Notes under the pieces: model-generated | The model's input: only the letters and a program-made list of their open reading frames with translations | Told to the model about the DNA's origin: nothing | Databases searched by the model: none | Program-made: the position numbers and the translations under genes | DNA from: Acidobacteriota bacterium | GTDB taxonomy: Bacteria; Acidobacteriota; UBA6911 | Assembly: GCA_041501225.1 (NCBI GenBank) | Contig: JBGQNR010000005.1 | Coordinates: forward strand, 3,661-67,660 | Direction of reading: 5' to 3' | Length of the DNA stretch: 64,000 bases | Part shown: positions 37,258 to 61,393 of the stretch, piece after piece | Layout of the letters: every line of letters begins with the position of its first letter | How positions within the stretch are numbered: position 1 is the stretch's first letter

Positions 37258-37728
37258 ATGCCAAAACGACGGCTTGTTCATATCCGACACAACGGGGGGT
37301 ATGCCTATAGCGCTGTCACCCGGCGGCCAGGATTGAGTTCGCACCATCATCCTTCATCGGCATCAGTATTAGAGGATGACTTGTCCCTGCCGGGGCCAGC
37401 AAATGCATTACACGATGACATTCGCCATTTGGGTGGCGGCAGATATTCTTTCTGGCATGACGGCGTCTATTTCTCCACTTCGGACAACAGTGATCCACGC
37501 ATCAACGGAAAAACTTACGCTATTCTTTACACTTATGCCCTAGTCCCACGGATCGCCGCCCTGATCCACTATCCATGGCAGCGATGGGGAGTCCAAGTAC
37601 TAAGGCGCGCAACCTGGCTTTTCCGGGCTGACCGGCGGCAGCAGGCGCTCTGGGGGATATTCTATTGGGTGTGCTTTGCAATGGTATTGTCGCGCAAACG
37701 AAAAACGCGCGGCATAACTCTGGATTGA
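37258..37728 (+). CDS. small tail-anchored protein consisting of one recurrent module (A-type) plus C-terminal TM
   Basis: Module aa 11-92, then a hydrophobic ALWGIFYWVCFAMVL near the C-terminus followed by SRKRKTR. Confidence 0.6.
   Translation: MPKRRLVHIRHNGGYAYSAVTRRPGLSSHHHPSSASVLEDDLSLPGPANALHDDIRHLGGGRYSFWHDGVYFSTSDNSDPRINGKTYAILYTYALVPRIAALIHYPWQRWGVQVLRRATWLFRADRRQQALWGIFYWVCFAMVLSRKRKTRGITLD
37288..37533 (+). other. recurrent ~82-aa module, A-type copy (small tail-anchored protein)
   Basis: HNGGYAYSAVTRRPGLSSHHHPSSASVLEDDLSLPGPANALHDDIRHLGGGRYSFWHDGVYFSTSDNSDPRINGKTYAILYT. Confidence 0.7.
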
Positions 37729-41130: not shown

Positions 41131-41225
41131 CCGCAGCACGGATGATGGATGCAATCGGCCCGAACCGCACCGTATCTGCCATCGGCCGGCAGCTTGGCCC
41201 TCGTGATGGGCGCGCGGAGAGCGGA

Positions 41226-44374: not shown

Positions 44375-44375
44375 A

Positions 44376-45503: not shown

Positions 45504-45524
45504 ACCTCCATCGGCAGTGTAAAA

Positions 45525-46499: not shown

Positions 46500-46532
46500 G
46501 CTGCCTCCACGATTCTCCCCGATCCTGCGTTT

Positions 46533-47477: not shown

Positions 47478-47486
47478 ACTCGATGA

Positions 47487-48452
47487 TCATCCCTTTGGAG
47501 AGACCGCCGGAAAGATGAATTTCGGTTTGTCTTTGATTTCGTCATAATGTGCCGAATACCAGTTCACGGTCCGCTGGATTCCTTCCGCCAGATCCTGGTT
47601 CAGACACATTTTATATTTCTCCGCGAGCCTGGTCGTGTTCAGGAATTTTGACTGCACGCCGACATAACGCTGGGTATTGAAGAAAAGTTGGCTTTGGAAA
47701 TCGGCGGCTTTCCCGATCGCGAGCGCCAAGTCCCGGATCGATGTGCCTTTCCCGGGAGCCAGATTGAGGATCTCACGATCCAGGCGCGGAATCAGGTCGA
47801 GCAAGGCACGGACAAAATCCTTCACGTATAGGAATTCGCGTATTTGCGATCCATCCCCCCAGATTTCCACCATCGGCAGATGCTCCCGCGTGGCGCGAAC
47901 GAATTTGGCGACGAGGGCGCCACACACATGGGCGGTATCCGCGTGAAAATCGTCGTGTTCGCCAAAGAGAGTCGGCGGGATGATATAACTCCCGTTCATG
48001 CCGAACTGGTCATTGTAGGCCAGGATGCCGGTGTATAGGAGGCGCTTGGTGAATGCATAGGAATAGACGCTCCCGTGAATCTCTCCGTCCAGGAAGCTGG
48101 CTTCTCGCAAGTCGTCCAGTCGGCTGGGGTAGGCGCAGGAGGATCCCATGGCAATTAATTTCGCCTGGGGAGAAAATCTCCTCCATGCCTCCAGCACATG
48201 GGTGTGAATCAAGCTGTTGATGCGGAACTGCTCTGCCGTATGTTTCGCCGGGAAATCTCCGGCAGCCTGAAAACAGGCGAGGTGGAGTATGACTTCCGCA
48301 CCGTCATTCTGCGCAAACACAGCGTCGGCCTGCTCTCGGATCGTCAAGTCGAATTGACTTTTTGAGAATACAACAAAGTCGGCCTTTCGACTCTCCAGCT
48401 CTTCCTGGAGGTGCCTGCCGATGAAACCAGTTCCGCCTGTCACAAGGATCAT
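47487..48452 (-). CDS. NAD(P)-dependent epimerase/reductase, GDP-L-fucose-synthase-like (SDR), second copy
   Basis: MILVTGGTGFIGRHL, SSCAYP, VYSYAFTKR and ALVAKF. The start overlaps the upstream stop (ATGA at 48449..48452). Confidence 0.7.
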   Translation of the reverse strand: MILVTGGTGFIGRHLQEELESRKADFVVFSKSQFDLTIREQADAVFAQNDGAEVILHLACFQAAGDFPAKHTAEQFRINSLIHTHVLEAWRRFSPQAKLIAMGSSCAYPSRLDDLREASFLDGEIHGSVYSYAFTKRLLYTGILAYNDQFGMNGSYIIPPTLFGEHDDFHADTAHVCGALVAKFVRATREHLPMVEIWGDGSQIREFLYVKDFVRALLDLIPRLDREILNLAPGKGTSIRDLALAIGKAADFQSQLFFNTQRYVGVQSKFLNTTRLAEKYKMCLNQDLAEGIQRTVNWYSAHYDEIKDKPKFIFPAVSPKG

Positions 48453-49453
48453 GGTGCCAGCATCTCTTTGATTTTTGCCGCGATTTTTGCAGTGGATGGA
48501 TAGAAACACTTTTCTAAAACACCGCTAGCCGGCATCGAACATTCGGGAAAGGTGAAGCGCCGGACGGGTGCCTTCAGGTATGGGAAGGCCTTTTCGGCGG
48601 CCAACGCACAAACTTCCGCGGCAAAGCCGCACATCGGGAAATCATAGTCCACGACCAAGAGACGCCCGGTCTTTTTTATCGAGTCGATGATCAATCCGTC
48701 GTCGAGAGGTTTCAGCGTTTGCGGATCGATCACCTCCACATCCAGTCCATGCTCTTCGCAGGCATTGAAGGCGTCGATGGCGGCGATGGAGGTAGCCACC
48801 ACCGTCAACCGCTTCCCCTGTCGCATCACAAGCCCCTTCCCTAGAGGCAGCGTGTACATTTCCGGGGGCACATGGCCGGTGTTTTTGTACAGCCATCGGT
48901 GTTCGATGAAAATTACCGGGTAATCATCCTGGATCGAGGCGAGAAACAATCCTTTCACATTGTAGGGAGTGGAAGGCATCACGACTTTGAGACCCGGAAT
49001 GTGGGCGAACAGAGATTGCATGGAGCCGGAATGCTGAGCGCCTGATCCCCATCCCCGGCCGATAACGGCCCGAATCACAAGCGGTACCTTGACTTGACCC
49101 TGGGTCATGTAGCGCCATTTCGCGATGTAGTTCACGATCTGGTCCATGGTGAGCATCATGAAGTCGACGCGCAATTGAATAAAGATCGGGCGCATGCCCG
49201 ACAGTGCAGCGCCGAGCGCGACGCCGGTCATCGCGTTTTCCGATATCGGCGTGCCGATGATTCTGTCCGGATAGGACATGTTGTGCATGCTGCCGAAAAC
49301 GCCAAATTTATCGTTGGCGTCCAGGCCGATGGCGAACACGGATGGATCGAGAACCATCGCCTGGTCGATCGCTTCTCGGATGGAATCCTTGAAGCTGAGG
49401 ATCCGGTCGCCGTCGACTAGGTTCTGGCATTGAGGAATTCTGCTCCAGGGCAT
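48449..49453 (-). CDS. TPP-dependent 2-oxoacid dehydrogenase E1 component, beta subunit-like
   Basis: SFKDSIREAIDQAMVLDPSVFAIGLD...RIIGTPISENAMTGVALGAALSGMRPI...PLVIRAVIGRGWGSGAQHS is the transketolase pyrimidine-binding plus C-terminal domain pattern. Confidence 0.8.
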   Translation of the reverse strand: MPWSRIPQCQNLVDGDRILSFKDSIREAIDQAMVLDPSVFAIGLDANDKFGVFGSMHNMSYPDRIIGTPISENAMTGVALGAALSGMRPIFIQLRVDFMMLTMDQIVNYIAKWRYMTQGQVKVPLVIRAVIGRGWGSGAQHSGSMQSLFAHIPGLKVVMPSTPYNVKGLFLASIQDDYPVIFIEHRWLYKNTGHVPPEMYTLPLGKGLVMRQGKRLTVVATSIAAIDAFNACEEHGLDVEVIDPQTLKPLDDGLIIDSIKKTGRLLVVDYDFPMCGFAAEVCALAAEKAFPYLKAPVRRFTFPECSMPASGVLEKCFYPSTAKIAAKIKEMLAP

Positions 49454-49454
49454 C

Positions 49455-50408
49455 TTACACCTCCCTCACGAGATCGGATTCGTTCGGGAAAGGGCTGTTC
49501 AGTGAAAACTCGATGGCCTCATCAATCTCCGCCTCCACCGCAGCGATCATTTCCTGAATCTCGTCGGAAGAGACGATTTGATTCTCCCGCAGCGTGTCTT
49601 CGAGCTTTTTGATAGGGCAATCACGTGCCCGATCGACGGGATTATATGCTAAGTCATCCACTTCCACCCCTTGGTGCTTCATCCAACGTTTGGTCGTACA
49701 TCGCAAAAACATCGGGGCCCGGTTTGATCGGACGTAATCCGTCGCCTGCGCGGCGGCATGGTAGACCGATAGAACGTCCGTGCCGTCAGCGCACGCGACG
49801 GGCATGAATTGGCGGGCGACGTTTTCGATTTCCACGAAAAGGTGTTCCGACTTGGGCATGACATTCGAGAGGGCATTGTCTTCGCACACCAGGAGAACGG
49901 GGACCCGTTTGAGTGCCGCGAAATTGATGCTCTCCCAGAATACGCCGGCATCCATAGCCCCATCGCCGAAGCAGGAGACCGAAATCCAGTCGGATCCTGT
50001 GAGCTTAGCGGCCAGAGCCGATCCAACCCCCAGGGCAATGCTACCACCAACGATCGAAGAGCTGCCCAGCATGCCGTTCGGCACGTCCACGAGGTGCATG
50101 GACCCCCCATACCCGCGCGCGCACCCTGTGGTTCTGCCGTATAGTTCCGCCACCAGCTTCTTCATATCCATCCCTTTTGCCAGGGCGGGGCCGTGGGAGC
50201 GGTGCCCGAAGAAGATTTTGTCGGCCGTAGCCAAGTGGGCACAAACGCCAACGGGAACCGCTTCCTGCCCAATGTGCAGATGGACCGGAGTCACCATCAC
50301 GTCCGTCGGGTAGATCGTTATGATTCTCTCTTGGAGCTGGCGGATCTCCCGCATTTTCCGCAGCAACCGGAGGGAGATGTCACGCGGAGGGATCGTGGGA
50401 TGTTGCAT
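49455..50408 (-). CDS. TPP-dependent 2-oxoacid dehydrogenase E1 component, alpha subunit-like
   Basis: HLHIGQEAVPVGV...GYGGSMHL...SCFGDGAMDAGVFWESINFAALKRVPVLLVCEDN is the TPP-binding GDG..N motif. Confidence 0.8.
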   Translation of the reverse strand: MQHPTIPPRDISLRLLRKMREIRQLQERIITIYPTDVMVTPVHLHIGQEAVPVGVCAHLATADKIFFGHRSHGPALAKGMDMKKLVAELYGRTTGCARGYGGSMHLVDVPNGMLGSSSIVGGSIALGVGSALAAKLTGSDWISVSCFGDGAMDAGVFWESINFAALKRVPVLLVCEDNALSNVMPKSEHLFVEIENVARQFMPVACADGTDVLSVYHAAAQATDYVRSNRAPMFLRCTTKRWMKHQGVEVDDLAYNPVDRARDCPIKKLEDTLRENQIVSSDEIQEMIAAVEAEIDEAIEFSLNSPFPNESDLVREV

Positions 50409-50427
50409 ATTGCATTCGCCTTATTCA

Positions 50428-51519
50428 CTAGGTTGTGCCGCATTCTTTCGTTTGCAGCCGGATAGCGAGATCGGACTCACGGAACGCTTCAATCGGACGG
50501 TTTTCCCTGTCCTTTTCCTCGACGGAATAGTCCTGTTCCGGGTCGAAGAAAATGATCTGGCTGCCGGAGAACGAGATGCAGAAGGGTACATATAGCAGTT
50601 TAGACAAACGTTCCCGCACCGCAACCTGGCAGGAAGGAGGCACGAAAAGAAGCATGAATCCGCCACCTCCGGCTCCGGTCAATTTCCCGCCGATCGCTCC
50701 GGCGGAACGGGCTTGCTGATACAGCGTATCCACGTCACCATTGGAAACCTGATCGCTGAGGCTTCGTTTCGTCTCCCAGCTTTCATGGAGGAGTTTACCA
50801 AACAAGGAAATATCCTGCCCGCTGCTGATGACGGAAAGTCCTTCATCCACCATATCCCGCAGGATGCGCAGTTGGCGCTTCCGTTTCTCGATTTCCCGTG
50901 TGTACGTGTGTGCGACTTCTGCGGCGGTGCGTGTAATACCCGTATAAAACAACATCAGGTAAGATTCCAGTTCCCGGAGGCGCTCCTTGGTGATGGTGAC
51001 CGGTTTGATGGAGATTTCTCCATTCTGCAGAAATTCGATATGGTTGAGCCCGCCGTAGGCAGCAATGACCTGATCCTGGGATCCTACGTTTTCCCTCATG
51101 ACTTCCTGTTCGATATAGATGCTCTCCAGCGCAAGCTTCCGCTTGCCCGGCATCTGCCCCTGGAGCGCATAAAGAGCGTGCAATAGCCCTACGGTGAACG
51201 AGGAACTCGATCCCATGCCGCTGCGCGCGGGCAGATCGCCCTGGTGATGGATTTCGATTCCGCGCTCAATCTTTAGATACTTCAATATGCCCCGCACGGC
51301 CGGGTGAAGAATCTCTTCCAGAGACATGCAGTTCTCAATTTTCGACCAGACCACACGATACCTGTATTCGAAAAACGGCGGCAAATGTCGACAGGTCAGG
51401 TAAGCGTATTTGTCGATGGAACAAGCCAGAACGGCACCGCCGTGATCACGATACCAGACCGGGTAATCCGTTCCGCCACCGAAGAATGAAATACGATAGG
51501 GTGTTCTACTGATGATCAT
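50428..51519 (-). CDS. GHMP-family sugar kinase (HddA / heptose-7-phosphate-kinase-like)
   Basis: IISRTPYRISFFGGGTDYP...GDLPARSGMGSSSSFTVGLLHAL...GKLTGAGGGGFMLLF. The ATG at 51519 has RBS aggaaagga. Confidence 0.8.
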   Translation of the reverse strand: MIISRTPYRISFFGGGTDYPVWYRDHGGAVLACSIDKYAYLTCRHLPPFFEYRYRVVWSKIENCMSLEEILHPAVRGILKYLKIERGIEIHHQGDLPARSGMGSSSSFTVGLLHALYALQGQMPGKRKLALESIYIEQEVMRENVGSQDQVIAAYGGLNHIEFLQNGEISIKPVTITKERLRELESYLMLFYTGITRTAAEVAHTYTREIEKRKRQLRILRDMVDEGLSVISSGQDISLFGKLLHESWETKRSLSDQVSNGDVDTLYQQARSAGAIGGKLTGAGGGGFMLLFVPPSCQVAVRERLSKLLYVPFCISFSGSQIIFFDPEQDYSVEEKDRENRPIEAFRESDLAIRLQTKECGTT

Positions 51520-51643
51520 AATTCCTTTCCTTTGCACGCGGTACTCGTGATGGTACATGTGCGTTTGATACCTGACACTGCTGTCCGGGGTATGAGCGAT
51601 CTACGGGATCCCACCGGCGACCAAAGACTCCCTGATACGGAAC

Positions 51644-52363
51644 TCAATCGCAAGCCAAAAACCCGGGAGCCATGCCATAGGTATCCGGCGTGCCGATATC
51701 AAGAAACCGGACGAAACTCCGATATCCATAAAATGCCCGTCCGATCCACGAGGGAAATATGTCGCGTTCGATCGACAGGGGAACATGAGCCGGCATGGCT
51801 TCGATCCAGGATCTTGCAATCAAGTACACGCCGGCATTAATCCATCCCGGTCCGCCCTCGTTCTTTTCGCGGAATGACTGGATCGCTCCCACAGCATCCA
51901 CTAGGACTTGCCCGTAGCGGCTCACATCGTCAACCTCCGCCAGGAGCAAGGAAGCGCCCGCGTTCCGCTCGAGATGCCATGCCCAGAAGGCGACGAAATC
52001 CGCTTTGGCGATCGAATCGCCGTTCATGACCAGAACGTATCGGGATTGGATCCTCGCCAGTGCATGACGCAGAGCTCCTGCGGTTCCCAATGGGGTAGGC
52101 TCTTGGGAATACAACAACTGCCGGCCAGCATATGTGTCCCCCAGCACGGCGCGCACCTGATCTCCGCGATACCCGGTACAGAGTACAATGCGGGTAATCC
52201 CGGCTGTGGCTACCTGGTCCAGAAGATAAGTCAGAAACGGCTTTTGATTTACCTCTGCGAGCACCTTGGGGCGGTCCGCGACCGCCGAGCGCAAACGAGT
52301 TCCCAATCCGCCCACCAGAATTACCGCCGTCGCGTCCGACAAATTTTCCGCAGTTTTACACAT
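51644..52363 (-). CDS. sugar-1-phosphate nucleotidyltransferase (HddC/GMP-like)
   Basis: AVILVGGLGTRLRSAVADRPKVLAEV..KPFL is the N-terminal G-x-G-T-R-L signature. There is an 8-nt overlap with the upstream gene. Confidence 0.8.
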   Translation of the reverse strand: MCKTAENLSDATAVILVGGLGTRLRSAVADRPKVLAEVNQKPFLTYLLDQVATAGITRIVLCTGYRGDQVRAVLGDTYAGRQLLYSQEPTPLGTAGALRHALARIQSRYVLVMNGDSIAKADFVAFWAWHLERNAGASLLLAEVDDVSRYGQVLVDAVGAIQSFREKNEGGPGWINAGVYLIARSWIEAMPAHVPLSIERDIFPSWIGRAFYGYRSFVRFLDIGTPDTYGMAPGFLACD

Positions 52364-53297
52364 TTTTGAACGGCGCCCGCCCCAGCATCCGGTACCCCTT
52401 GAGGAGTTCTTGAATCCCGACATCCAACGAACGGCGCGCCTGGAAGCCAGCTTCCTTCAATCGCCGATTGGACACGATGTAATCGCGTTTGTCGGGATCA
52501 CTTCCCACGGGAGCGAAGTGTATATAAAATCGGGGCACGTATTCCTTGACTTTCAAAGCGAGCTCTTCTTTCGAGAGATTGGCCTCGTCGAGCCCCAGAT
52601 TGTAAGGGCGACCGACCATTTCTGAAGAATGCGCAATGCAATGGAGGAAGCAGTCTGCCACGTCACGAATGTGGATGTAGTTGCGTTTGGCGTCTTTTTC
52701 GAAAATGACGATGTATCCATCGGTCACGGATGCGTAGACAAAATGATTTACCAACAGGTCGAGCCTCATCCGGGGAGACATTCCGAAAACCGTGGCCAGT
52801 CGCAGCGTCACGGTGTTCGGACTGTCCAATAGTTCTTTTTCTGCCTGGACTTTGGTTTGGCCGTAAAGCGAGATGGGCTCGAGCGAGGTATCCTCCGTGC
52901 AAAACCTGTCACCCGATTGGGTGCCGTAGCCGCTATTGGTGTTCGGGTATATGACCAGCTGTTGCGGGCTACGCAATCGATTGACGAGCCGAACCGCTTC
53001 GAGGTTGATCGATCGCGCCATCCAGGGATCTCGATCGCAGGCCGGTGCGCCGACGAGGGCCGCCAAGGGGATGATGACATCGGCATTCTTGATGCACCGG
53101 CTCATCAAAGATTCGTCGCGGGCATCTCCGAATACAAAATCAAAACCCGGCTGCGCACAATGTTGGAAAAGCGTATGCTGCGAGTAGTAGAGGTTGTCGA
53201 CCACCGTGACCTGATGGCCTGCCTGGAGCAGGTGTTCGCATAAAATGGAACCCAGGTATCCTGCGCCGCCTGTGATCAAAACTCGCAAATCCATCAT
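52356..53297 (-). CDS. NAD-dependent sugar epimerase/dehydratase (SDR)
   Basis: VLITGGAGYLGSILCEHLL and the catalytic YxxxK LYGQTKVQAE. Confidence 0.8.
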   Translation of the reverse strand: MMDLRVLITGGAGYLGSILCEHLLQAGHQVTVVDNLYYSQHTLFQHCAQPGFDFVFGDARDESLMSRCIKNADVIIPLAALVGAPACDRDPWMARSINLEAVRLVNRLRSPQQLVIYPNTNSGYGTQSGDRFCTEDTSLEPISLYGQTKVQAEKELLDSPNTVTLRLATVFGMSPRMRLDLLVNHFVYASVTDGYIVIFEKDAKRNYIHIRDVADCFLHCIAHSSEMVGRPYNLGLDEANLSKEELALKVKEYVPRFYIHFAPVGSDPDKRDYIVSNRRLKEAGFQARRSLDVGIQELLKGYRMLGRAPFKNV

Positions 53298-53475: not shown

Positions 53476-56301
53476 TCAATGGCTTCCAGCCCCTCTTAGC
53501 CCGATCCCTGGGCGACAAGAGAGGCGGTGGTTGATTCGCAATGCTATCTCCCAAAGCAGGAGAAACGCCGCGACGACGGCCAGAAACTCGGAGGCTTTGA
53601 CCATCCTGGGGATCGGCGCGGCGAAAAGCGCCGTAAGTCCGACGTGGGCCAGATGAGCGAGGATCATGACCGCTGCGGCATAGCCGCACCGCCCACGCAG
53701 CCAAAGCGCAGCGAGGAAGCAAAGACCATAGAGAAAATACGGATCGAGGAAACCACAACGGAACCTGGCTCCGCTAGGCTGGGTAAGCCCCAATACCCAG
53801 AACCTGATGCCAAAACTCAGATAATCCAGCCGCCGGGTGGCCAGGATTGGAGTGGCAATCTTCATCAAGAATTCGGCCGGCTTCGGGTGGCCGGCGATCA
53901 TGGGCAGCGCCACCTTATATAGATTGTTGTTGATGTAGTACACGTACCGGCAGTATTCATCCCCTTTACACATCTCATCTACGCTCCGGTGCTCCATCTC
54001 TCGGCGTGCGAGCGCAGACTGCAACCATTGACGCGACTCCTCATCCGGCATCAACCCGACATCCTGCGGCTGAGCGACCTGCAGGGCATAGGTGATACGG
54101 TACTGGTACTGAAGATTCTCCTGGGCCGCCCCTAATTGGCCGGTCTTGATCATGCCGTAAATATCCGGGATGGTTGCCAACGCGATCAGCGGCAGGATGG
54201 AGAGCAGGGCCCAGCGCCAGTAGGTTCTCCAATTGACAAACAACGCCCAAAGAATCATGGCGACCAGAAACAGGAACGTATAACCGGCGGCCTGGCGAGT
54301 AAGATAAATGGCGCCGCACAGCAGACCGGCGAGGGGCAGCATGCTCTTCCGTGCATTCCAAAGGAACAGGAGGAATACGGACATCAGAAGCAACACCAGG
54401 GTCTGCACCAGGTCTTCGGTCAGGATCAGATTCAATTCCTGTGCGGTAAAGAAAAGAAAGTCATATAAAAAAAGGAAGAGAATCGCGGGGAGAGGTGACC
54501 TCAGAAGGGTCATCAAGAACCAGCAGCTGACGAGGCCTGCCGCGAGCAACAAAAAAATCTGCACGCGTCCCACCCGAAGCAAGGGATCGCCAGGGTCGGT
54601 AATCGCGATATTCACCGGATGGACCTTGGCCCACGCCGCGGGATCAAAACCGCTCCCGAGCGTGACCAGCTTGATGAACCATGGGTACAAAGGCTGCCGT
54701 GGAGAACCCACATAATACCCGAAATAGTAACTTGCAGAATCGGGTGCCGTGCAACAGGCGTCCCACGCGGAAAGGGGCGCCTCCGTGCGACACCACTGCG
54801 CTGGGTTCGGGGCGACGGCGGTCAGAAGATAGTAGGCGACAACGAGCGCAGCAAAATGAGGTGCAAGGTACTTCTTCGGACAGAGTGCCCCGAATTTTTT
54901 TCGCAACAGCCATGCCAGCAGTACATTCAGCGGGACGATAACCCGCCAAAGAGTTCCATGCAGCAAGGACAGGGAAGAGAAGGCACGGGATAAAGCGATG
55001 ACGACTATCGGAAATGCTGCGCACAACACGACCGCCCATACCACTTTGGGAGTCCATAGGGACTCTAGCGAAATCCGTCGCTTCCTCATCAGCAAAACTG
55101 TAGAGGAGGTCGCCAAACCACAAAACAAAACCGTCAGAGCGTACAGGACATAAGCGGGCAGCCTGCCTACCATGCGCGGGTAACGCATCTCATACCGACG
55201 ACCGTTCATCCGAGGGTCGGCATTATCCGAGGCCGAAAAATAAACACACTCGTGCCAGAACGAATAGCGCCCTTTTCCGAGGGTACGAATGTCGTCGTGC
55301 AAGGCATTGGCCGGGCCTGCCAGGGGTGTGCCGTCCTCCAATAATTGTGCCGGGGAGGGGCCCTTGTGGGAACTCAACAGGGGATCATGGGTAGGAGCCA
55401 TGTAGGCGAAGCCATGTTCCGCCTGGATGCCGGCGATGACGCCCGAACCCCAATAGGGAGTCAATCTCCCCAAGCGATTCAGATAAATCAGGAGGGATAA
55501 ACTCAACAGAAGCAAAGAAGCCGGCCAAAGTATCCGCGGAGAGATTGTTACTTGCTCTGCCAATTGCAGGAATGCCTTCGGCACGAACGCCAAAATGGCT
55601 GCCACTCGGGCACGCCGATTCGCAGGGGACGCAACACGTTCGGGCCAGAGGCGGCGCAAACCCTCCCTTTTCCTCCATGCGATGCGCAGGGCGAGGAGCG
55701 CGACCCCAAAGACGGCGATGAATGTGATGCCGTACAGTATGCGAGCCGAACCATCATCCAGAGAGCGCGGGAAGGAGATTTCGTACTTTCTGCCATTGGT
55801 GCGGGGGTCCGTATTGTCGGAGGTGGCGAAATAGACGAAATCGTGCCAAAAGGAGTAGCGGCCCCGGCCCGACCTCCGTATGTCGTCATGCAGAGAATTC
55901 CCGCCTCCCGGCAGAGGGGACCCGTTCTCGAGGATTCGGGCCGGGGAAGGTCTCTCATGCGAACTCAATTCCGGCAAATGCGTGGGCGCCACATAGGCGA
56001 AACCGCGCTCCGGCTGAAAGCTATCCAATGTGGTCTGTTTCCACAGAACGGTCAACTTTCCCACGTGGCTCTCATACACCACGTAGGATGTCGTGCTTAA
56101 GAGGGCCACCAACAATACGTAACCCACGAACAGTGCCGTCCGCCAACGCTTCCCAATTACCAATGCAACCTCATTCTTGATTCCGAATCGACGGCATGGC
56201 CTACTTCCATGCAGCACAGCTGCCAAATCCGTGCCGGGAAGTGCCTCAGGCAGGGCCTGCCCCTGAGACGCCGGTGCCAGGTATTTATGGAACAGAACCA
56301 A
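53476..56301 (-). CDS. large polytopic membrane protein carrying two recurrent modules (A-type); possible GT-C-like enzyme
   Basis: 941-aa ORF. One TM precedes module 1, 2-3 TMs separate the two modules, and 12 or more hydrophobic segments follow module 2. There is no ATG near the 5' end: the track start is TTG, and a TTG at 56163 with gagg upstream is an alternative. Confidence 0.75.
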   Translation of the reverse strand: MVLFHKYLAPASQGQALPEALPGTDLAAVLHGSRPCRRFGIKNEVALVIGKRWRTALFVGYVLLVALLSTTSYVVYESHVGKLTVLWKQTTLDSFQPERGFAYVAPTHLPELSSHERPSPARILENGSPLPGGGNSLHDDIRRSGRGRYSFWHDFVYFATSDNTDPRTNGRKYEISFPRSLDDGSARILYGITFIAVFGVALLALRIAWRKREGLRRLWPERVASPANRRARVAAILAFVPKAFLQLAEQVTISPRILWPASLLLLSLSLLIYLNRLGRLTPYWGSGVIAGIQAEHGFAYMAPTHDPLLSSHKGPSPAQLLEDGTPLAGPANALHDDIRTLGKGRYSFWHECVYFSASDNADPRMNGRRYEMRYPRMVGRLPAYVLYALTVLFCGLATSSTVLLMRKRRISLESLWTPKVVWAVVLCAAFPIVVIALSRAFSSLSLLHGTLWRVIVPLNVLLAWLLRKKFGALCPKKYLAPHFAALVVAYYLLTAVAPNPAQWCRTEAPLSAWDACCTAPDSASYYFGYYVGSPRQPLYPWFIKLVTLGSGFDPAAWAKVHPVNIAITDPGDPLLRVGRVQIFLLLAAGLVSCWFLMTLLRSPLPAILFLFLYDFLFFTAQELNLILTEDLVQTLVLLLMSVFLLFLWNARKSMLPLAGLLCGAIYLTRQAAGYTFLFLVAMILWALFVNWRTYWRWALLSILPLIALATIPDIYGMIKTGQLGAAQENLQYQYRITYALQVAQPQDVGLMPDEESRQWLQSALARREMEHRSVDEMCKGDEYCRYVYYINNNLYKVALPMIAGHPKPAEFLMKIATPILATRRLDYLSFGIRFWVLGLTQPSGARFRCGFLDPYFLYGLCFLAALWLRGRCGYAAAVMILAHLAHVGLTALFAAPIPRMVKASEFLAVVAAFLLLWEIALRINHRLSCRPGIGLRGAGSH
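55177..55422 (-). other. recurrent ~82-aa module, A-type copy 2 of the membrane protein
   Basis: AEHGFAYMAPTHDPLLSSHKGPSPAQLLEDGTPLAGPANALHDDIRTLGKGRYSFWHECVYFSASDNADPRMNGRRYEMRYP. Confidence 0.7.
55768..56013 (-). other. recurrent ~82-aa module, A-type copy 1 of the membrane protein
   Basis: PERGFAYVAPTHLPELSSHERPSPARILENGSPLPGGGNSLHDDIRRSGRGRYSFWHDFVYFATSDNTDPRTNGRKYEISFP. Confidence 0.7.
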
Positions 56302-56435: not shown

Positions 56436-57647
56436 TTACGGCCGTTCCACGGTAAACCGACCGCCGATATGTTTCAGATGTGCGGGATCCAGGTTCTGGT
56501 ATCTAGAACCGTTAGCTTGGCGAAGCCGTGGTATAAAATCGGACAAGTACGCGTCGTCGGCAGTACAACTTGATGTGAATTCACGTACACGGAATCCCGC
56601 GAGCTGAAACATCTCATGATAATCCGAAGGGCGATATCGATTGCCGCATTCGCCATGTTTCTCGATAAACTGCTTGGCGAATTCCTGATCGCCCATAAGC
56701 AAAAACTCGAGGGGTTTGGAGAAATCATTGTGATCGCGAAAATCTACTTGATGATAGCCTAGGGCGGCGCGCTTAGAAACGCGCGCCATTTGACGAAATG
56801 CGGAGAGTGGATCAAACAAATGCTCCAGTACCGCAATGGAAAATATGATGTCCATAGTCGCATCAGGTATGCCTTCAAGTTTCTCCAATGACGTGGCGAA
56901 GCACTGAATGCTCAGGGGATCATACCCTTTTTGTCCCAGAATTTTATCTAGCGGGGCCAGATCGACTGATGAAAACGTAGCCCTAATCCGCTCGCGAAGA
57001 AGTGAGTAGAATCTTGGATGATAGGCCTCGTCCCAAGGCGCCAGAAAGCGGTCGCTCACCGTCACGTGGGCACCCATGCATGCCATCAGGAGTGGGCTGC
57101 CGAAATTGATGCCTGGCCCAATCTCGAGCACGGTCTTCCCAACTAAGGTGCGGCTTCCTTCGGGGAGCCATCGAACTAAGTTCTGGCCTATTTCCATCGC
57201 GTATGCGACATCCTTGTCTATAGCTTCGGGAGAAAAATTGCGCATGGATAGGTTTACCGGCTTATTTTCGGTAGGAAGAGAATTGTGAGTCAGACTATTT
57301 TTCATCTCACGGGCCTTCCGGAAACACCATGCAATAGGGGTCAATAGCTTCGGCGGGAAGGCGATCTCATACCTCCGACCATTTGTGCGCGGGTCGGTAT
57401 TATCCGAAGCCGAAAAATAAACCGCATCGTGCCAAAAGGAGAATCGCCCTTCCCCAAGGTTGCGAATGTTGTCGTGCAAGTCATTTCCGGGTCCAGAAAG
57501 CGGAACACCATCTTCCAACACATGCGCCGGGGATGGCACCCGGTGTGAGCTCAATTCGGGTCGACAGGTCCCTGCAATATAGGCAAACCCCCTCTCGGGC
57601 CTGATTTCCGCCAACAGGGCATGTCGCCAAGGCCCGTATCGCTTCAT
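56436..57647 (-). CDS. recurrent module (A-type, N-terminal) fused to class I SAM-dependent methyltransferase
   Basis: Module aa 17-98, then VLEIGPGINFGSPLLMACMGAHVTVSD (motif I) and IIFSIAVLEHLFDP. Confidence 0.8.
   Translation of the reverse strand: MKRYGPWRHALLAEIRPERGFAYIAGTCRPELSSHRVPSPAHVLEDGVPLSGPGNDLHDNIRNLGEGRFSFWHDAVYFSASDNTDPRTNGRRYEIAFPPKLLTPIAWCFRKAREMKNSLTHNSLPTENKPVNLSMRNFSPEAIDKDVAYAMEIGQNLVRWLPEGSRTLVGKTVLEIGPGINFGSPLLMACMGAHVTVSDRFLAPWDEAYHPRFYSLLRERIRATFSSVDLAPLDKILGQKGYDPLSIQCFATSLEKLEGIPDATMDIIFSIAVLEHLFDPLSAFRQMARVSKRAALGYHQVDFRDHNDFSKPLEFLLMGDQEFAKQFIEKHGECGNRYRPSDYHEMFQLAGFRVREFTSSCTADDAYLSDFIPRLRQANGSRYQNLDPAHLKHIGGRFTVERP
57354..57599 (-). other. recurrent ~82-aa module, A-type copy (N-terminus of methyltransferase)
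   Basis: PERGFAYIAGTCRPELSSHRVPSPAHVLEDGVPLSGPGNDLHDNIRNLGEGRFSFWHDAVYFSASDNTDPRTNGRRYEIAFP. Confidence 0.7.
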
Positions 57648-57828: not shown

Positions 57829-58533
57829 TCATGCCTGAACATCGTAGGGGCAAACAAAATCTTGGGGATTTATTTTCTGATGCGCGACCATGTACAACAC
57901 GTTCGGCACGGAAAGCTGGGCTCTCAGGTGGACGAAGATTTTTTCCCGGATATCCTCGTGTTTCAGTCCGTCAAAAGTGATGTACATTTTCGGTCGGGAC
58001 CCACCGGCCTCATCCAGCGCATCGCGCACAAAGTGAAATGCCTCGGCTAATAATCGATACCCATTCGCTTCCGCAACGCCTCTGAATATCATCGGGTTAA
58101 AATTGTAGTAACCATGCTCAAACCATGAAATCGGCGCAACATGAATGATCGTACCGCCGACGCACGTCAACTCGTGAAGATTGCGAAACGCCGTCCCAAT
58201 ATCAAAAATATGCTCTATGGTTCCTGCATCCAGGACCGTCCTGGCGGCTGCAATCCACGGCTTCGGCAGCGGCTGCCCAAAATCAAGAGCCAGATCGGCC
58301 TTCCCGTTGAGATCGCAATCGCGATAATCCGCAACGGCATAGCGGTCCAGGAACAGACTCCGCGCGGTCATTTCCCTGGCCAGATGTCTATGGCCATTTT
58401 GTGCGGCAAAATCAAGGATCTTATCCTTCGTCTCGTGAATCTCCTGAGACCCCAGGACGAAAAGCGGAGACTGGATAGCTTTTTGTGCGTAGCACAGGTC
58501 ATAAAACGGAAGATGAGAGAAACCTATTCCCAT
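57829..58533 (-). CDS. methyltransferase-like protein immediately downstream of wzt
   Basis: VLDAGTIEHIFD and GGTIIHVAPISW resemble the post-motif-I/II region of class I methyltransferases. The start codon abuts the wzt stop (TGAATG). No clear GxGxG motif was seen, so the assignment is tentative. Confidence 0.55.
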   Translation of the reverse strand: MGIGFSHLPFYDLCYAQKAIQSPLFVLGSQEIHETKDKILDFAAQNGHRHLAREMTARSLFLDRYAVADYRDCDLNGKADLALDFGQPLPKPWIAAARTVLDAGTIEHIFDIGTAFRNLHELTCVGGTIIHVAPISWFEHGYYNFNPMIFRGVAEANGYRLLAEAFHFVRDALDEAGGSRPKMYITFDGLKHEDIREKIFVHLRAQLSVPNVLYMVAHQKINPQDFVCPYDVQA

Positions 58534-60246
58534 TCACTTCTCCGGCTGAAGCCCTGCCTGGAAGTCAGCCCGGGATGATGCCAGCAGACGCTCTTCAATG
58601 GGCTGCGCATTCAAATCTACGATGGAAGTGGTAAAAATCTCATTGTTCCTGCCAACTTCAAACTGCAATCCATCATATTGGAGGTCGTACTGGACATTAT
58701 CCTCGGCATAAGGATCGGCGGCTGCAGAGGTCAGGAAGTATATCTCATTGGTGAGCCACATGGTCACCTTCATGGCGGCTTCCACAAGGTCTCCCTTATA
58801 TTGCTTCCGGATCGTGGATTTTTGAAGTCGTGTGCTCGTCCCGAACATGTCCACGCCTTTGCGGTCTCGTATCACGAAGCCGAAAACCGTTCCTTCCACA
58901 TCCTCATAATACAGCACCCGCATAAACAGGGTACAATGCGCGCCCGACGTCAATATTACGGCAGGATTTCCGTCCTCATCGAGGATTCCGGATTCAAGGA
59001 TCTCGGCCTTGCCGTTCCCCATGCGCGCCAGTCGAGGGCTGGACAATTCCATCGGTTGGGATCTCCCTAATCGGTCCAGCGCGCGTCGGCGCAGAGTCTC
59101 TCTATCCGGATCCTGGATCATCCCCGGAGATGGCTGGGAAATGGGACGTACAACCTCACGCCGAAGACTATAAACGCGGCCATTAGATCTTGGATCGCTG
59201 TTGTCGCTGGTTGAAAAGAGCAGCGCTTTTTCCCAGTGGGAATATCCTCCTCTGCCATGTTTGCGGATCAGGTCATGCGTGTAATGAGCCGGGCGCAGTG
59301 GCTTGTCATCTTCATACAGCACAAAACGGGATCGCTGCGGATTCTCTGACGAATCGCTATGTACTGCATGGCCGGTCAGGTCGATCCACCAGGCATGGCC
59401 GCCCTCATGCTTGATCTTGCCTGCATCCAGGATAATTTCGGATTCCCCCTCCAGGGCTTCTTCCACTGCAGGAGCCGTTATTGAGGTTACTCTTTTCTCT
59501 CCCGCATCGCTGGCGAAGAGCATTTTGTAATACACCTTGCTGATGCGCTGGGGCTCGCCCTGATCGGCAATCTGCCCGCCCTCTAATAGGACGGCATGGT
59601 CACAGAAGGTGCTGATGGTATTGCTGTCGTGCGAAACCAGCAGGATCGTCCGGCCGACATTTCTGAACTCTTCGATCTTGCCGAAGGACTTGCGCTGGAA
59701 TTTGGCGTCCCCGACCGACAAGGCTTCGTCGATGATCAGGATGTCGGGATCGACGCATACCGCGGTGCTGAAGGTCAACCGGGCCTGCATACCCGTGGAA
59801 TAGGTCTTGAAGGGCTGGTCAATAAAGTCCTCGAGCTCGCTGAACCGGATGATCCAATCCATTTTGTCCAGGATTTCCTCGCGGCTCAATCCGACCATAA
59901 GCCCGCCGAGGTAGATGTTTTCCCGGCCGCTGTATTCGCTGTGAAAGCCGGTGCCGAGTTCCAGAATGGAAGAAACCCGGCCCTGGACCGCAACTCCACC
60001 GGCAGTGTAATCGAGCGTTCCGGTGATAATTTTGAGCAGCGTGCTCTTCCCCGCGCCGTTGCGCCCCATGATGCCCACAACCTGCCCCCGGCCCACTTCG
60101 AGGGACACGTTTTTCAGAGCCCAGAAAGGCTTGTATCTCGGCTTGCCGGTACACAGTTCCCAGAACATGTCCGCCGGCCTGGCGTAGATCTTGAACATCT
60201 TGGAGAGACTGGAAACGCGGATCGCAATCCCGTCGGCACCATTCAT
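58534..60246 (-). CDS. wzt: O-antigen/glycan ABC exporter ATP-binding protein Wzt with inserted recurrent module (B-type) and C-terminal Wzt_C-like domain
   Basis: Walker A GRNGAGKSTLLK, signature YSTGMQARL, Walker B ILIIDEALSVGD, and H-loop LVSHD. The module is at 59155..59406, and a beta-rich Wzt_C-like region lies at ~58645..59028 (GKAEILESGILDEDGNP...SGAHCTLFMRVLY...). The ATG at 60246 overlaps the wzm stop (ATGA). Confidence 0.85.
   Translation of the reverse strand: MNGADGIAIRVSSLSKMFKIYARPADMFWELCTGKPRYKPFWALKNVSLEVGRGQVVGIMGRNGAGKSTLLKIITGTLDYTAGGVAVQGRVSSILELGTGFHSEYSGRENIYLGGLMVGLSREEILDKMDWIIRFSELEDFIDQPFKTYSTGMQARLTFSTAVCVDPDILIIDEALSVGDAKFQRKSFGKIEEFRNVGRTILLVSHDSNTISTFCDHAVLLEGGQIADQGEPQRISKVYYKMLFASDAGEKRVTSITAPAVEEALEGESEIILDAGKIKHEGGHAWWIDLTGHAVHSDSSENPQRSRFVLYEDDKPLRPAHYTHDLIRKHGRGGYSHWEKALLFSTSDNSDPRSNGRVYSLRREVVRPISQPSPGMIQDPDRETLRRRALDRLGRSQPMELSSPRLARMGNGKAEILESGILDEDGNPAVILTSGAHCTLFMRVLYYEDVEGTVFGFVIRDRKGVDMFGTSTRLQKSTIRKQYKGDLVEAAMKVTMWLTNEIYFLTSAAADPYAEDNVQYDLQYDGLQFEVGRNNEIFTTSIVDLNAQPIEERLLASSRADFQAGLQPEK
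59155..59406 (-). other. recurrent ~82-aa module, B-type copy (inside Wzt)
   Basis: EGGHAWWIDLTGHAVHSDSSENPQRSRFVLYEDDKPLRPAHYTHDLIRKHGRGGYSHWEKALLFSTSDNSDPRSNGRVYSLRRE. Confidence 0.7.
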
Positions 60247-61079
60247 AGCACGTTCCCGAACATCACCTTCATTTTGCGAAACACACGATATCCCAGGACG
60301 AAAACGAAGAGGCTCGTCCCAACGAATGCCGCCCACGACCACGGGTGAACAAACCGCCCGAAATACAGAATATCCTGATAACACCAGACCATATAGCTGA
60401 AGGGATTGACGAAGAGGACGACGCGCACGGCCGTGGGCACGGATTCGGGCAGATACAGGATCGGCAGAATGAAAAACGCGACGGAGCAAAAGACCTGGAC
60501 AAAGTCTTTCACGTCACGAAAGTAGGCGCCCACGGATGAAAGCAGATAACTTGCGCCGATCATTGCCAACGCCTGCACCAGGAAAAGCAACGGCAGCAAA
60601 GCAAAAGTCCAAAGCAATTTGTGATAGGTGAAGAGATTGTATGCGGTCAGGAGCGCCAGGAAGATGATCTGAGTCGCAAGCGTGGCGATCACACCCTTGA
60701 CCGGAAGGACCTCGATCGGAAAGATCACCTGCTTGACCAGGTTGGCGTTCGCGACAATCACCGTCCCGGATTTCGTCATGCTCTCCTGGAATGCCAGCCA
60801 TGGGATCAGGCCGGCAAGCATGTACGATGTGTAGTTGAGCGGCATATCCAAGGTGCCGCCTACGCGCGTTCGAAAAACATACGCAAATATAAAAACGTAG
60901 ATCAGGATCAGGGCGAGCGGGTGGCCGATGGCCCAGAACGTCCCGAAGAACTGGCCGGAATAGCGCTCGCCGATCTCGCGCTTCGCCAACTCCAGAGTCA
61001 GGCGGCGGTGCCGGGTGAGCAGCGCAATCAGCTCATGAAATGCCTGCAAATTGGCCTTGAGATTCAATGCCGAAACCAT
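60243..61079 (-). CDS. wzm: ABC-2 type glycan exporter permease Wzm
   Basis: ~278 aa with six hydrophobic segments (FWAIGHPLALILIYVFIF, YMLAGLIPWLAF, ...) and translational coupling to wzt. The ATG at 61079 was chosen because the upstream 64 codons of the track ORF run through MITE family B. Confidence 0.85.
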   Translation of the reverse strand: MVSALNLKANLQAFHELIALLTRHRRLTLELAKREIGERYSGQFFGTFWAIGHPLALILIYVFIFAYVFRTRVGGTLDMPLNYTSYMLAGLIPWLAFQESMTKSGTVIVANANLVKQVIFPIEVLPVKGVIATLATQIIFLALLTAYNLFTYHKLLWTFALLPLLFLVQALAMIGASYLLSSVGAYFRDVKDFVQVFCSVAFFILPILYLPESVPTAVRVVLFVNPFSYMVWCYQDILYFGRFVHPWSWAAFVGTSLFVFVLGYRVFRKMKVMFGNVL

Positions 61080-61142
61080 AGGTCGTCCGGAACGTGGAAA
61101 ATCCAATGATAAGGGAGATCGCCGGAGAACGCAAAGACTGAT

Positions 61143-61393
61143 CCGAGGACCCTGCGATTCAGACAGTGGGCATGGAAAGTAGAAATCGATTATCTTTTCA
61201 CCGCGAAGACCACAAAGACCGCAAAGCTGACTCCCAGGCCCGCCCGGGGGCTGCCTTCGGCCGCCGCTCACGGCCGAGAATGGCGCAACGCGAAGCGTTG
61301 GCCCCCGGGTGTGAAGAATCGAATTCGCCTCTTTGCGGTCTTTGAGGTCTTCCCGGTTCGGTGTTTTCCTCTGTCTGAATTACAGCCGAGGAC
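61143..61393 (-). mobile_element. MITE family B, copy 2 (inverted relative to copy 1), with its own 8-bp target-site duplication
   Basis: CCGAGGAC (61143..61150) . ctgcgattcagacagtgg (61152..61169) ... cctctgtctgaattacag (61368..61385) | CCGAGGAC (61386..61393). The body aligns with the reverse complement of 31954..32260 but lacks an ~80-bp internal duplication present there. Confidence 0.8.

Follow-up and report, generated by a model that had tools for sequence, protein, structure and literature searches.

A two-module membrane protein of an Acidobacteriota polysaccharide locus as a candidate periplasmic GT-C glycosyltransferase

What is the role of a large polytopic membrane protein that is encoded in a Wzm/Wzt polysaccharide locus, carries two copies of a ~95-residue module and resembles none of the usual polysaccharide-assembly proteins? 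The question was raised by a reading of a 64,000-nucleotide stretch of an Acidobacteriota contig, which we refer to as the window. This original prediction suggested that the protein is a GT-C-type transferase partnering a GT2 enzyme of the same locus, and that the modules tether it to the cytoplasmic assembly machinery. Here, we present an analysis of the gene, of the topology and relatives of its product, and of the module. The features of the window are listed in Table 1.

The open reading frame of the membrane protein had been noted for its want of a canonical ATG start. The maximal frame is TTG-initiated, and no in-frame ATG occurs before residue 301 of the translation. Among the in-frame starts, only the TTG at codon 47 (56161..56163) is preceded by an SD-like sequence (GAGG, 5 nt upstream). 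The gene call for the same protein in a public collection (P0001) is 895 residues long, in agreement with this start, and residues 1–45 of the 941-residue frame are disordered in the AlphaFold model. Therefore, the true product is probably the 895-residue protein initiated at this TTG, not the 941-residue one.

The membrane protein is predicted to contain 16 TM helices and to have both termini in the cytoplasm, as judged from hydropathy, DSSP of the model and loop charges across 70 homologues. One TM helix precedes module 1, two TM helices and two short basic amphipathic helices separate the modules, and 13 TM helices follow module 2, a layout in line with the one claimed before. The AlphaFold model has a pLDDT of 88.4 and a pTM of 0.78. 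The orientation derives from the positive-inside rule together with helix parity: the density of K+R in the 70 homologues is 0.15–0.40 in predicted cytoplasmic loops versus 0.01–0.09 in predicted periplasmic loops. Since TM parity and the positive-inside rule agree across the homologues, sequence and model place both modules in the periplasm. The modules are joined to TM hairpins by very short linkers, on the same predicted periplasmic face as the conserved loops of the core. Their periplasmic site is unproblematic, as the module also occurs in secreted proteins. The original prediction had named a periplasmic position of both modules as a refuting outcome, and the cytoplasmic tether is thus unsupported.

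Table 1 Features of the window and of the membrane protein (residues numbered in the 941-residue frame)
Feature	Coordinates	Strand	Description
WecA/MraY-type initiating transferase of the same polysaccharide locus	23653..24717	+	PF00953
FkbM methyltransferase, 515 aa	32360..33907	+	B-type module 33407..33631
156-aa ORF	37258..37728	+	One A-type module and a C-terminal hydrophobic segment
Methyltransferase, 427 aa	39946..41229	-	C-terminal B-type module 39955..40143
GT2, polyprenyl-phosphate sugar-synthase-like, proposed maker of the lipid-linked donor	42644..43351	-	235 aa, without TM segment
Sugar-nucleotide cassette between GT2 and membrane protein	43394..53297	-	SDR, nucleotidyltransferase, GHMP kinase, E1 alpha/beta, two SDRs, AKR, methyltransferases; syntenic with membrane protein in L002 and L003
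Membrane protein, maximal ORF	53476..56301	-	941 aa, TTG-initiated
Conserved GT-C-like core, TM7–TM16 (last ten helices)	53536..54864	-	Residues 480–922
Alpha-helical periplasmic domain, TM13–TM14	53746..54144	-	Residues 720–852; invariant D747
First periplasmic loop of the core (EL1)	54580..54810	-	Residues 498–574; C504/C517 pair, W513, invariant D521 (54739..54741) in PDSxSYY, R535-x-P-L-Y539
TM4–TM6, joining module 2 to the conserved core	54904..55155	-	Residues 383–466
Module 2, predicted periplasmic, within TM3/TM4 hairpin	55168..55467	-	Residues 279–378; model of the domain alone has pLDDT 94.8
TM2–TM3 basic cytoplasmic loop	55540..55683	-	Residues 207–254; 12 K+R versus 3 D+E
Module 1, small, beta-rich, predicted periplasmic, within TM1/TM2 hairpin	55762..56058	-	Residues 82–180
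TM1, N-in signal-anchor ahead of module 1	56068..56133	-	Residues 57–78; from hydropathy, model and loop charges
SAM methyltransferase (MT403), 403 aa	56436..57647	-	N-terminal A-type module 57345..57596
Wzt ABC ATPase	58534..60489	-	B-type module 59164..59370 between NBD and Wzt_C
Wzm ABC-2 permease	60243..61271	-	–

The membrane protein belongs to a small sequence family that is annotated by no domain library. Neither the whole protein nor the profile of its core has a significant match in Pfam, NCBIfam or the PDB sequences, and the earlier failure to match it to Wzx, Wzy, WaaL or Wzm holds for the families of Pfam and NCBIfam. The core family is rare, with 177 representative clusters matching among 1.84 billion proteins. 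Residues D521, Q581 and D747 are invariant in the alignment of 70 sequences, and W513, S522, Y525, R535, P537, Y539, E629, R669, H883, P896 and R899 are conserved in at least 90% of them. All of these residues are located in predicted periplasmic loops, except for Q581 in the first turns of TM8 and H883 within TM15. The search for conserved acidic residues in periplasmic loops, which the original prediction had proposed, hence yields D521, D747 and E629. EL1, the loop after TM7 that contains D521, is poor in Lys and Arg, and its Cys pair is conserved in close homologues. GT-C enzymes have about 8–13 or more TM helices and a conserved catalytic Asp or Glu in the extracytoplasmic loop behind the first core helix, which is the position of D521 in the predicted topology.

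The fold of the model points to GT-C enzymes. A Foldseek search of the PDB returned nothing at E ≤ 1e-3; the high-probability matches are nearly all GT-C proteins, namely EmbA/B/C, ALG9, ArnT 5ezm, Pmt4 (probability 0.99), PglB 5ogl (0.98), STT3, ALG3 and Pmt1/2. About 20 of the 30 top matches are GT-C enzymes, with probabilities of 0.85–0.99, a best E of 3.6e-3 and TM-scores of at most 0.41. Sequence comparisons lead in the same direction. The Pfam profiles PMT_2 (PF13231) and PMT (PF02366) do not match the membrane protein; the PMT profile matches one of its 70 relatives (E 4.9e-4). An hhalign comparison with PMT_2 proteins of the same genome extends over 181 columns (P=4e-4) and pairs RQPLYPWF with KPPLTYW, and YLTRQA with FMTKGP. 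The hhalign probabilities against seven such proteins are 35% and 26% for the shallow and deep family profiles, both below 50%, and we regard this likeness as supportive only. When the core HMM is run against the 5,025 ORFs of the genome, the best non-family match and the best single-domain match are two of its 11 PMT_2 proteins, in the same region, both sub-threshold (E 0.008 and 0.0015).

The membrane-protein gene heads a conserved operon, which encodes a modified NDP-sugar pathway and, at its end, a DPM1/GtrB/ArnC-type GT2. The assignment of the GT2 agrees with the earlier reading, as polyprenyl-phosphate sugar synthases account for all of its best NCBIfam matches (AglJ, Dol-P-hexose transferase, ArnC and PpgS), each scoring below the equivalog cut-off. 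C-terminal TM helices are typical of GtrB and ArnC; the GT2 of the window has none. The polytopic ORFs of the window are only WecA, a WbpM-like protein, the membrane protein and Wzm. No GtrA-, SMR- or MATE-like flippase was found in the window, with the PF04138 profile for GtrA and by the census of polytopic ORFs only for SMR and MATE. The sole GtrA homologue of the genome (PF04138) is encoded on contig C30. A genome-wide search for Wzy_C (PF04932) identified three canonical proteins elsewhere in the genome, none of which is this gene or its paralogue, so the ligase role is probably covered.

A GtrB/ArnC/DPM1-type GT2 is located beside the core family in all five informative loci, the co-occurrence that the original prediction had suggested to check. 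GT2 genes are common in glycan loci, and part of the co-occurrence is therefore expected by chance. In locus L002, where the core is 40% and the GT2 63% identical to those of the window, cassette and GT2 are in the same order, and in L003 the cassette is kept as far as the contig end. Distant family members in L017, L021 and L022 adjoin GtrB/ArnC-type GT2s with two C-terminal TM helices; the pair in L022 is translationally coupled and lies inside another Wzm/Wzt locus, which also has a gene for a 294-aa protein with 7 TM helices, a possible flippase candidate. L017 encodes two core-family members together with two further polytopic proteins of no known family. Glycan genes are absent from the surroundings of a same-genome paralogue on contig C29. 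When 185,579 species genomes were scanned with a pattern, one locus only was retrieved, which is uninformative on context because its gene is split over three frames, and when 401 genomes of the phylum were scanned with the profile, only the genome of the window matched. Fold search, periplasm-facing conserved acidic and basic residues, weak but specific links to PMT_2 and the GT2 in 5/5 loci together support the identification of the membrane protein as a periplasm-facing GT-C-fold glycosyltransferase with a putative polyprenyl-phosphate-sugar donor, as predicted from sequence and model. Of the initial proposal, the partnership of a GT-C-type transferase with the GT2 is thus supported, and the tether is not.

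The two modules of the membrane protein (residues ~82–180 and ~279–378) are 65% identical (tblastn E about 1e-37), which bears out the duplication first noticed. Seven modules are present in the window, in Wzt, three methyltransferases, the 156-aa ORF and twice in the membrane protein, and one further copy is in the C29 paralogue. The module occurs in at least 70 of 160 core-family proteins, always in the order TM-module-TM. Outside the core family, it is found in methyltransferases, radical-SAM enzymes and secreted lyases. In Pedobacter pectate lyases, the module is positioned between a lipoprotein signal and a Pro/Thr linker; it follows a poly-Pro linker in a secreted beta-helix protein and adjoins LamG/PKD domains in others. 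It is thus separated by linkers in carbohydrate-active enzymes, in the manner of accessory domains. The module profile has no sequence match in Pfam, NCBIfam or the PDB. A Foldseek comparison with solved structures revealed no relative among solved CBMs, and we therefore infer from the fusion partners only that the module may bind glycan. In this comparison, the C-terminal domain of fluorinase scored best (probability 0.72–0.85, E ≥ 0.05). This domain was considered as a functional clue, since many module partners are SAM enzymes, and was rejected because of the weak score and the presence of the module in secreted lyases and in the periplasm, where SAM is absent.

The module copies share 58–70% protein identity, and their third-position identity is 0.30–0.46, so that synonymous sites are saturated. 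The latter value led us to reject recent gene conversion among the copies. Since the proteins have stayed similar despite the saturation, selection, not recent duplication, keeps the copies alike. The module tree, in which grouping by genome would have pointed to co-evolution with the ligand, is mixed, grouping clearly by neither genome nor position, and its decisive nodes are poorly resolved. We tentatively speculate, at less than even odds, that the module represents a new CBM-like family for polymer recognition that functions on either side of the membrane, on cytoplasmic tailoring enzymes, on Wzt and twice on the periplasmic GT-C enzyme, so that all steps, beginning with capping, continuing with export and ending with glycosylation after export, would read the same polysaccharide feature.

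We propose, with a probability of about 0.6, that the membrane protein is a periplasmic GT-C enzyme that adds an unusual sugar to the exported surface polysaccharide of the locus, with the donor made lipid-linked by the GT2 and the acceptor held by the modules. The cassette would produce an unusual NDP-sugar, and the GT2 would attach this sugar to undecaprenyl phosphate on the inner side of the membrane. A flippase, for which the window offers no candidate, would carry the lipid-linked sugar to the outer face. There, the membrane protein would transfer the sugar to the polysaccharide, with D521 as the putative catalytic base. The acceptor would be the polysaccharide built in the cytoplasm by GT4 enzymes of the locus and exported by Wzm/Wzt, before its ligation. 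The two modules may keep the acceptor polymer at the active site, similarly to the periplasmic carbohydrate-binding domains of Emb, AftD and Citrobacter ORF12, and the same module on Wzt and the cytoplasmic methyltransferases could provide all enzymes of the pathway with a common grip on the polymer.

The acceptor of the GT-C enzyme could also be lipid A or core, as for ArnT, a protein, as for PMT or PglB, or another envelope glycan, with the modules recognizing that target. The structural matches include ArnT, PMT and PglB, PMT_2/ArnT-type proteins provide the nearest sequence links, and the C29 paralogue lies outside any glycan locus. However, the gene is embedded in and co-oriented with Wzm/Wzt polysaccharide loci, here and in L022, and the presence of the same module on Wzt and the glycan methyltransferases of the locus points to the polymer as a shared ligand, which makes a different acceptor rather unlikely. 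We regard as unlikely, too, a WaaL/Wzy-like ligase or polymerase in the periplasm, or a polymerising transferase akin to Emb, that would handle an Und-PP-linked glycan or a whole glycan domain instead of single side-chain residues. Such an enzyme would fit the large, late alpha-helical periplasmic domain, the conserved Arg and His on the outer face, the Emb proteins as top fold matches, the four polytopic proteins of L017 described above, and the weak Wzy_C match of one of the 70 family members (E 0.004). The Wzy_C profile, though, does not match the membrane protein itself, the top 50 fold matches include no WaaL structure, the genome has its three canonical Wzy_C proteins elsewhere, and the tight linkage to a GT2 of the polyprenyl-P-sugar-synthase type fits a monophosphate-linked donor.

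Two further explanations appear improbable to a higher degree. If both modules were cytoplasmic, the GT-C enzyme might dock on the methyltransferases and Wzt through module-module contacts. The 58–70% identity to modules on clearly cytoplasmic proteins of the locus is compatible with docking; these are Wzt, other SAM enzymes and MT403, which is cytoplasmic since it has neither signal peptide nor TM helix. We consider such docking very unlikely, as module 2 and the periplasmic D521 loop are four TM helices apart, the basic short loops are all on the side opposite the modules in the 70 homologues, and a module that follows signal peptides in secreted enzymes is not intrinsically a cytoplasmic docking unit. 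Least probable of all is that the protein is a non-enzyme, either a transporter, a flippase or a scaffold, whose resemblance to GT-C proteins reflects no more than the generic packing of a helical bundle. No fold match is statistically strong, a flippase for the presumed lipid-linked donor was not found in the locus, and one homologue is labelled at its source as "MFS family permease". Another homologue, however, is labelled ArnT-like, and the invariant positions, which bear acidic or basic residues, are in outer loops, not along a mid-membrane pathway. The transporter reading suggested by the MFS label was rejected on the Foldseek probabilities, which are at most 0.1 for transporter structures versus 0.85–0.99 for GT-C enzymes.

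Periplasmic three-component glycosylation is among the main sources of diversity in surface antigens, and the founding of new GT-C families continues, with GT136 established in 2024. The membrane protein would be another GT-C-like family, unrecognised by domain libraries and tied to an unusual sugar pathway. The architecture of the protein is new, as its binding-type domains are inserted into TM hairpins that precede the catalytic core. The reuse of the module by the exporter and the cytoplasmic tailoring enzymes offers a handle on how one polymer may be recognised by enzymes at either side of the membrane. Given its occurrence in secreted pectate lyases, the module is a candidate for a new CBM family with practical interest.

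The module is comparable to Wzt_C (PF14524), a polymer-recognition domain on pathway machinery that is present beside it in the Wzt of the locus. In contrast to Wzt_C, the module is a separate, unannotated domain that is common to methyltransferases, radical-SAM enzymes, secreted lyases and the GT-C family. The proposed pathway follows the logic of the GtrA/GtrB/Gtr* systems of Shigella and Salmonella and that of Klebsiella, in which a GT2 makes Und-P-sugar and a GT-C enzyme adds the sugar to O-PS in the periplasm. In Klebsiella O antigens, a galactose-adding three-component system acts also on polymers exported by ABC transporters (reviewed in PMC11127046). Unlike the Gtr systems, the locus described here lacks a GtrA-type flippase and C-terminal TM helices in the GT2, the GT-C protein has extra modules, and the donor, made by a 10-kb cassette, is probably a heavily modified sugar, not Glc or Gal.

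ArnT/PMT_2 proteins (PF13231; GT83/GT39-type) are the nearest detectable sequence relatives of the membrane protein. Their first-loop pattern, D-x-x-x-Y ... [KR]-x-P-L-Y-x-W, is similar to that of the membrane protein, as is a (T/N)-(R/K)-(P/Q/G) motif that follows the fifth core helix, whereas the membrane protein has a much shorter spacing within the loop motif. The mycobacterial EmbA/B/C and AftD (PDB 7bvf, 7bvc, 7bwr) are its top structural matches, yet have no detectable sequence similarity to it. The periplasmic carbohydrate-binding domains of Emb and AftD hold the acceptor polymer, and their donors are decaprenyl-P-sugars (PMC11127046). The binding domains of Emb are jelly-roll CBMs, located in a loop and at the C-terminus, whereas the module has a different small fold without a solved relative.

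By analogy, the closest precedent is ORF12 of Citrobacter youngae O1, a GT-C enzyme with a CBM that is the founder of CAZy GT136 and part of a three-component system acting on an ABC-exported O-PS (PMC11127046). ORF12 contains 11 TM helices and one C-terminal CBM, which binds the unmodified O-PS backbone; its donor is made by a phosphoribosyl-type synthase, and the system includes a MATE flippase (PMC11127046). Compared with this description, the membrane protein has 16 predicted TM helices and two N-terminal modules in TM hairpins, its proposed donor maker is a DPM1/GtrB-like GT2, and a flippase was not found in the window. The two proteins are alike in having a predicted or established periplasmic GT-C fold without sequence similarity to older GT families, and in combining a place in an O-polysaccharide locus with an adjoining enzyme for a polyprenyl-phosphate donor and an extra periplasmic beta-rich domain. 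In both, the first outer loop contains a catalytic-type Asp together with a Tyr, D31/E34/Y35 in ORF12 and D521/Y525 in the membrane protein.

The GT-C-like membrane protein is encoded by the frame 53476..56301 (-), which has 941 open codons from a TTG and contains no in-frame ATG before residue 301. Residues 1-45 are disordered in the AlphaFold model, the TTG at codon 47 (56161..56163) is the sole in-frame alternative start with an SD-like GAGG, located 5 bases upstream, and the gene call of the public collection begins there (P0001). The gene product is therefore probably 895 aa long; residue numbers follow the 941-aa frame. As originally predicted, the protein contains two copies of a ~95-aa β-rich module, at residues about 82-180 and 279-378, which are 65% identical (tblastn E about 1e-37). 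The predicted membrane layout also holds, as hydropathy and the model agree on one transmembrane (TM) helix ahead of module 1, two between the modules, and 13 past module 2. Two short basic helices also lie between the modules.

Searches of Pfam, NCBIfam, and PDB sequences gave no match for the core of the protein (TM7-TM16, residues 480-922), and the protein belongs to neither the PMT_2/PMT nor the Wzy_C families of Pfam. A word-indexed search retrieved 18 homologues of 42-60% identity, in which zero to three modules precede the conserved core. When 1.84 billion representatives were searched exhaustively with a profile, 177 clusters in all matched at E<=1e-3, so the family is small and, at the sequence level, stays apart from the large GT-C families already known. 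Among 401 sampled genomes of the phylum, only that of the window carries it. Residues D521, Q581, and D747 are invariant in 70 diverse members, and conservation is 90% or more at W513, S522, Y525, R535, P537, Y539, F542, E629, R669, H883, P896, and R899. A 695-aa paralogue on contig C29 of the same genome, composed of one module and the core, is 59% identical. It adjoins an IS integrase and an AbiEi/AbiEii pair, has no glycan genes nearby, and possibly owes its position to the IS. The sole family member found in the species-representative genome collection, from an Acidobacteriota MAG (SPRUCE peatland), is split over three frames, which marks it as either a pseudogene or a misassembly.

The AlphaFold model computed with the 70-sequence alignment has a mean pLDDT of 88.4 and a pTM of 0.78. 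Its high-probability Foldseek matches in the PDB are nearly all GT-C glycosyltransferases (EmbA/B/C, ALG9, ArnT, STT3, ALG3, Pmt1/2; Pmt4 at 0.99 and PglB at 0.98), and pumps and transporters score at most 0.1. No match reaches an E of 1e-3 and TM-scores are low, and taken alone the fold search is suggestive, short of proof. Two independent sequence tests point the same way. The alignment of the family with seven PMT_2 proteins of the same genome by hhalign covers 181 columns (P 4e-4, probability 35%, or 26% with a deeper profile) and pairs RQPLYPWF with KPPLTYW and YLTRQA with FMTKGP. The first-loop signature PDSxSYY...R-x-P-L-Y-P-W likewise resembles DE..Y...KPPLyYW of ArnT/PMT_2 proteins of this genome. 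When the core HMM was run against the genome's 5,025 ORFs outside the family, the top sub-threshold match (E 0.008) and the top single-domain match (E 0.0015) were both PMT_2 proteins, of which the genome has eleven, aligned over the same helices. We estimate the probability of a GT-C fold at about 0.8.

The positive-inside rule, applied to 70 of 70 homologues, predicts 16 TM helices with both termini in the cytoplasm. The density of K+R is 0.15-0.40 in the N-terminus, the C-terminus, and loops TM2-3, TM4-5, TM6-7, TM10-11, TM12-13, and TM14-15, and 0.01-0.09 in the TM5-6 turn and periplasmic loops EL1 and EL2. The three-residue EL3 is an exception, because the invariant R669 makes up most of it. 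Both modules, the D521 loop (EL1), E629, R669, the D747 helical domain, and R899 are thereby predicted to face the periplasm. A cysteine pair in EL1 is kept among close homologues. In the model, the linkers between module and flanking helix are only 4-8 residues long, and each module must therefore sit at the outer membrane surface. The original prediction was half right: the GT-C partner of the GT2 stands, whereas the cytoplasmic tether is contradicted by the periplasmic placement predicted from the 70 homologues, which that proposal had itself named as incompatible with it.

The window contains seven modules, two of them in the GT-C-like protein, and an eighth is in the C29 paralogue. A lone module was modelled with a pLDDT of 94.8 as six strands and one helix; Foldseek found no convincing relative among solved structures, and a PDB sequence search found no match. 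Of 160 fetched family proteins, at least 70 contain the module, each time between TM helices. Elsewhere it is fused to many SAM methyltransferases, radical-SAM/SPASM enzymes, transglutaminase-like proteins, a β-helix protein (after a poly-Pro linker), and a PKD/LamG protein. In secreted PL1-type pectate lyases of Pedobacter (P0207-P0220; e.g. P0208 residues ~60-150), it follows a lipoprotein signal and precedes a Pro/Thr linker; the stretch, annotated by no library, is a candidate for a new family of carbohydrate-binding modules. Judging by these partners, the module works on either side of the membrane, invariably as part of glycan-related proteins, and its simplest common function would be polysaccharide binding. 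A-type copies of this genome share 58-70% protein identity although their third positions are near-saturated (identity 0.30-0.46), and it is selection, rather than recent duplication, that keeps them alike. The module tree does not tell grouping by genome from grouping by position.

The window encodes a complete ABC-transporter-type polysaccharide locus with a WecA-type initiator, a WbpM-like dehydratase, GT4 enzymes, methyltransferases, Wzm/Wzt, and two AsnB-type amidotransferases. A sugar-nucleotide cassette separates the GT2 from the GT-C-like gene. The membrane protein of L002, a JGI contig, shares only 40% identity, yet the genes that follow it are ordered as in the window: SDR, GHMP kinase, TPP-enzyme pair, two SDRs, AKR, methyltransferase, an unannotated 326-aa gene (56% identical), and GT2 (63%). 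L003 keeps the order as far as its contig end. Distant members (L017, L021, L022) occur in other sugar contexts, still beside GT2s whose best matches are polyprenyl-phosphate sugar synthases; L021 has an SDR-DegT-GT2-acetyltransferase set, and in L022 the family gene overlaps the GT2 stop/start within another Wzm/Wzt locus. These three GT2s have two C-terminal TM helices, as GtrB/ArnC do, whereas those of the window and L002 are bare 235-aa catalytic domains devoid of any TM helix. A family member lies beside a GT2 in all five informative loci.

Coordinates of module-bearing and other genes in the window and in other family loci
Feature	Locus	Coordinates	Strand
GT2	window	42644..43351	-
Sugar-nucleotide cassette	window	43394..53297	-
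SAM methyltransferase adjoining GT-C-like gene, module at N-terminus	window	56436..57647	-
156-aa ORF with module	window	37258..37728	
Second methyltransferase, module at C-terminus	window	39946..41229	
FkbM methyltransferase with module	window	32360..33907	
Wzt, module between ATPase and Wzt_C domain	window	58534..60489	
234-aa ORF	window	57829..58533	-
AsnB-type	window	28795..30741	-
AsnB-type	window	34127..36055	+
AsnB-type	L002	3299-5173	
AsnB-type	L017	4112-6007	
AsnB-type	L021	17685-19649	
AsnB-type	L022	7763-9736, 18984-20864	
GT2	L017	2540-3457	
GT2	L021	15956-16951	
GT2	L022	12064-13053	
Family members, 736 aa; 1174 aa	L017	6232-8442; 10001-13525	
Polytopic proteins, 452 aa; 590 aa	L017	13675-15033; 14999-16771	
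294-aa protein	L022	13624-14508	
SIS-domain and NUDIX genes	L003	5963-7041	
695-aa paralogue	L001 (C29)	3846..5933	
IS integrase	L001 (C29)	6155..7186	
AbiEi/AbiEii pair	L001 (C29)	7704..9237	
Split family member	L004	8419-10656	

AsnB-type glutamine amidotransferases are present in every examined family locus, often adjoining the GT2, which suggests that the same glycan chemistry includes amidated uronic acids or some related step. The metagenomic L017 has two family members and two unannotated polytopic proteins with ~9 and ~8 TM segments, a content that hints at multi-step periplasmic glycan building. Extra SIS-domain (GmhA-like) and NUDIX genes between the nucleotidyltransferase and GHMP kinase of L003 hint at a heptose-type starting sugar. 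The 234-aa ORF that separates Wzt from the methyltransferase in the window resembles a class-I methyltransferase core (…VLDAGTIEHIFD…) and has no Pfam or NCBIfam match.

Alongside the demonstrated architecture, conservation, rule-based topology, fold resemblance, and gene linkage of the GT-C-like protein, we infer its donor and acceptor, its catalysis, and what its modules bind. The cassette would make an unusual NDP-sugar, whose sugar the GT2 would place on undecaprenyl phosphate. After flipping of the lipid-linked sugar across the membrane, the GT-C-like protein would move the sugar, with D521 as the base, onto the Wzm/Wzt-exported polymer held by the two modules. The flippase is the main gap, as the window has no GtrA homologue or other unassigned polytopic protein. 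It is possible that an unannotated 294-aa protein with ~7 hydrophobic segments, two genes downstream of the coupled GT-C/GT2 pair of L022, is a flippase of the family's systems.

The closest functional precedent is Citrobacter youngae, where the GT-C protein ORF12 (founder of GT136) adds a side-chain sugar to O-PS in the periplasm and its appended CBM binds the unmodified backbone (PMC11127046). The same logic operates on ABC-exported O-PS of Klebsiella, and Emb/AftD are GT-C enzymes with CBMs (both cited in PMC11127046). Relative to ORF12, which was compared by its described architecture, the GT-C-like protein would be a separate sequence family and has 16 TM helices versus 11. In contrast to the Citrobacter system, the window has a DPM1-like GT2 devoid of TM helices and no flippase in the locus. 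The putative binding domains of the GT-C-like protein, unlike that of ORF12, are N-terminal, tandem, and threaded into TM hairpins. Their fold, which has no solved relative, is common to the exporter and cytoplasmic tailoring enzymes, and the most interesting point is the module as a putative polymer reader in two compartments.
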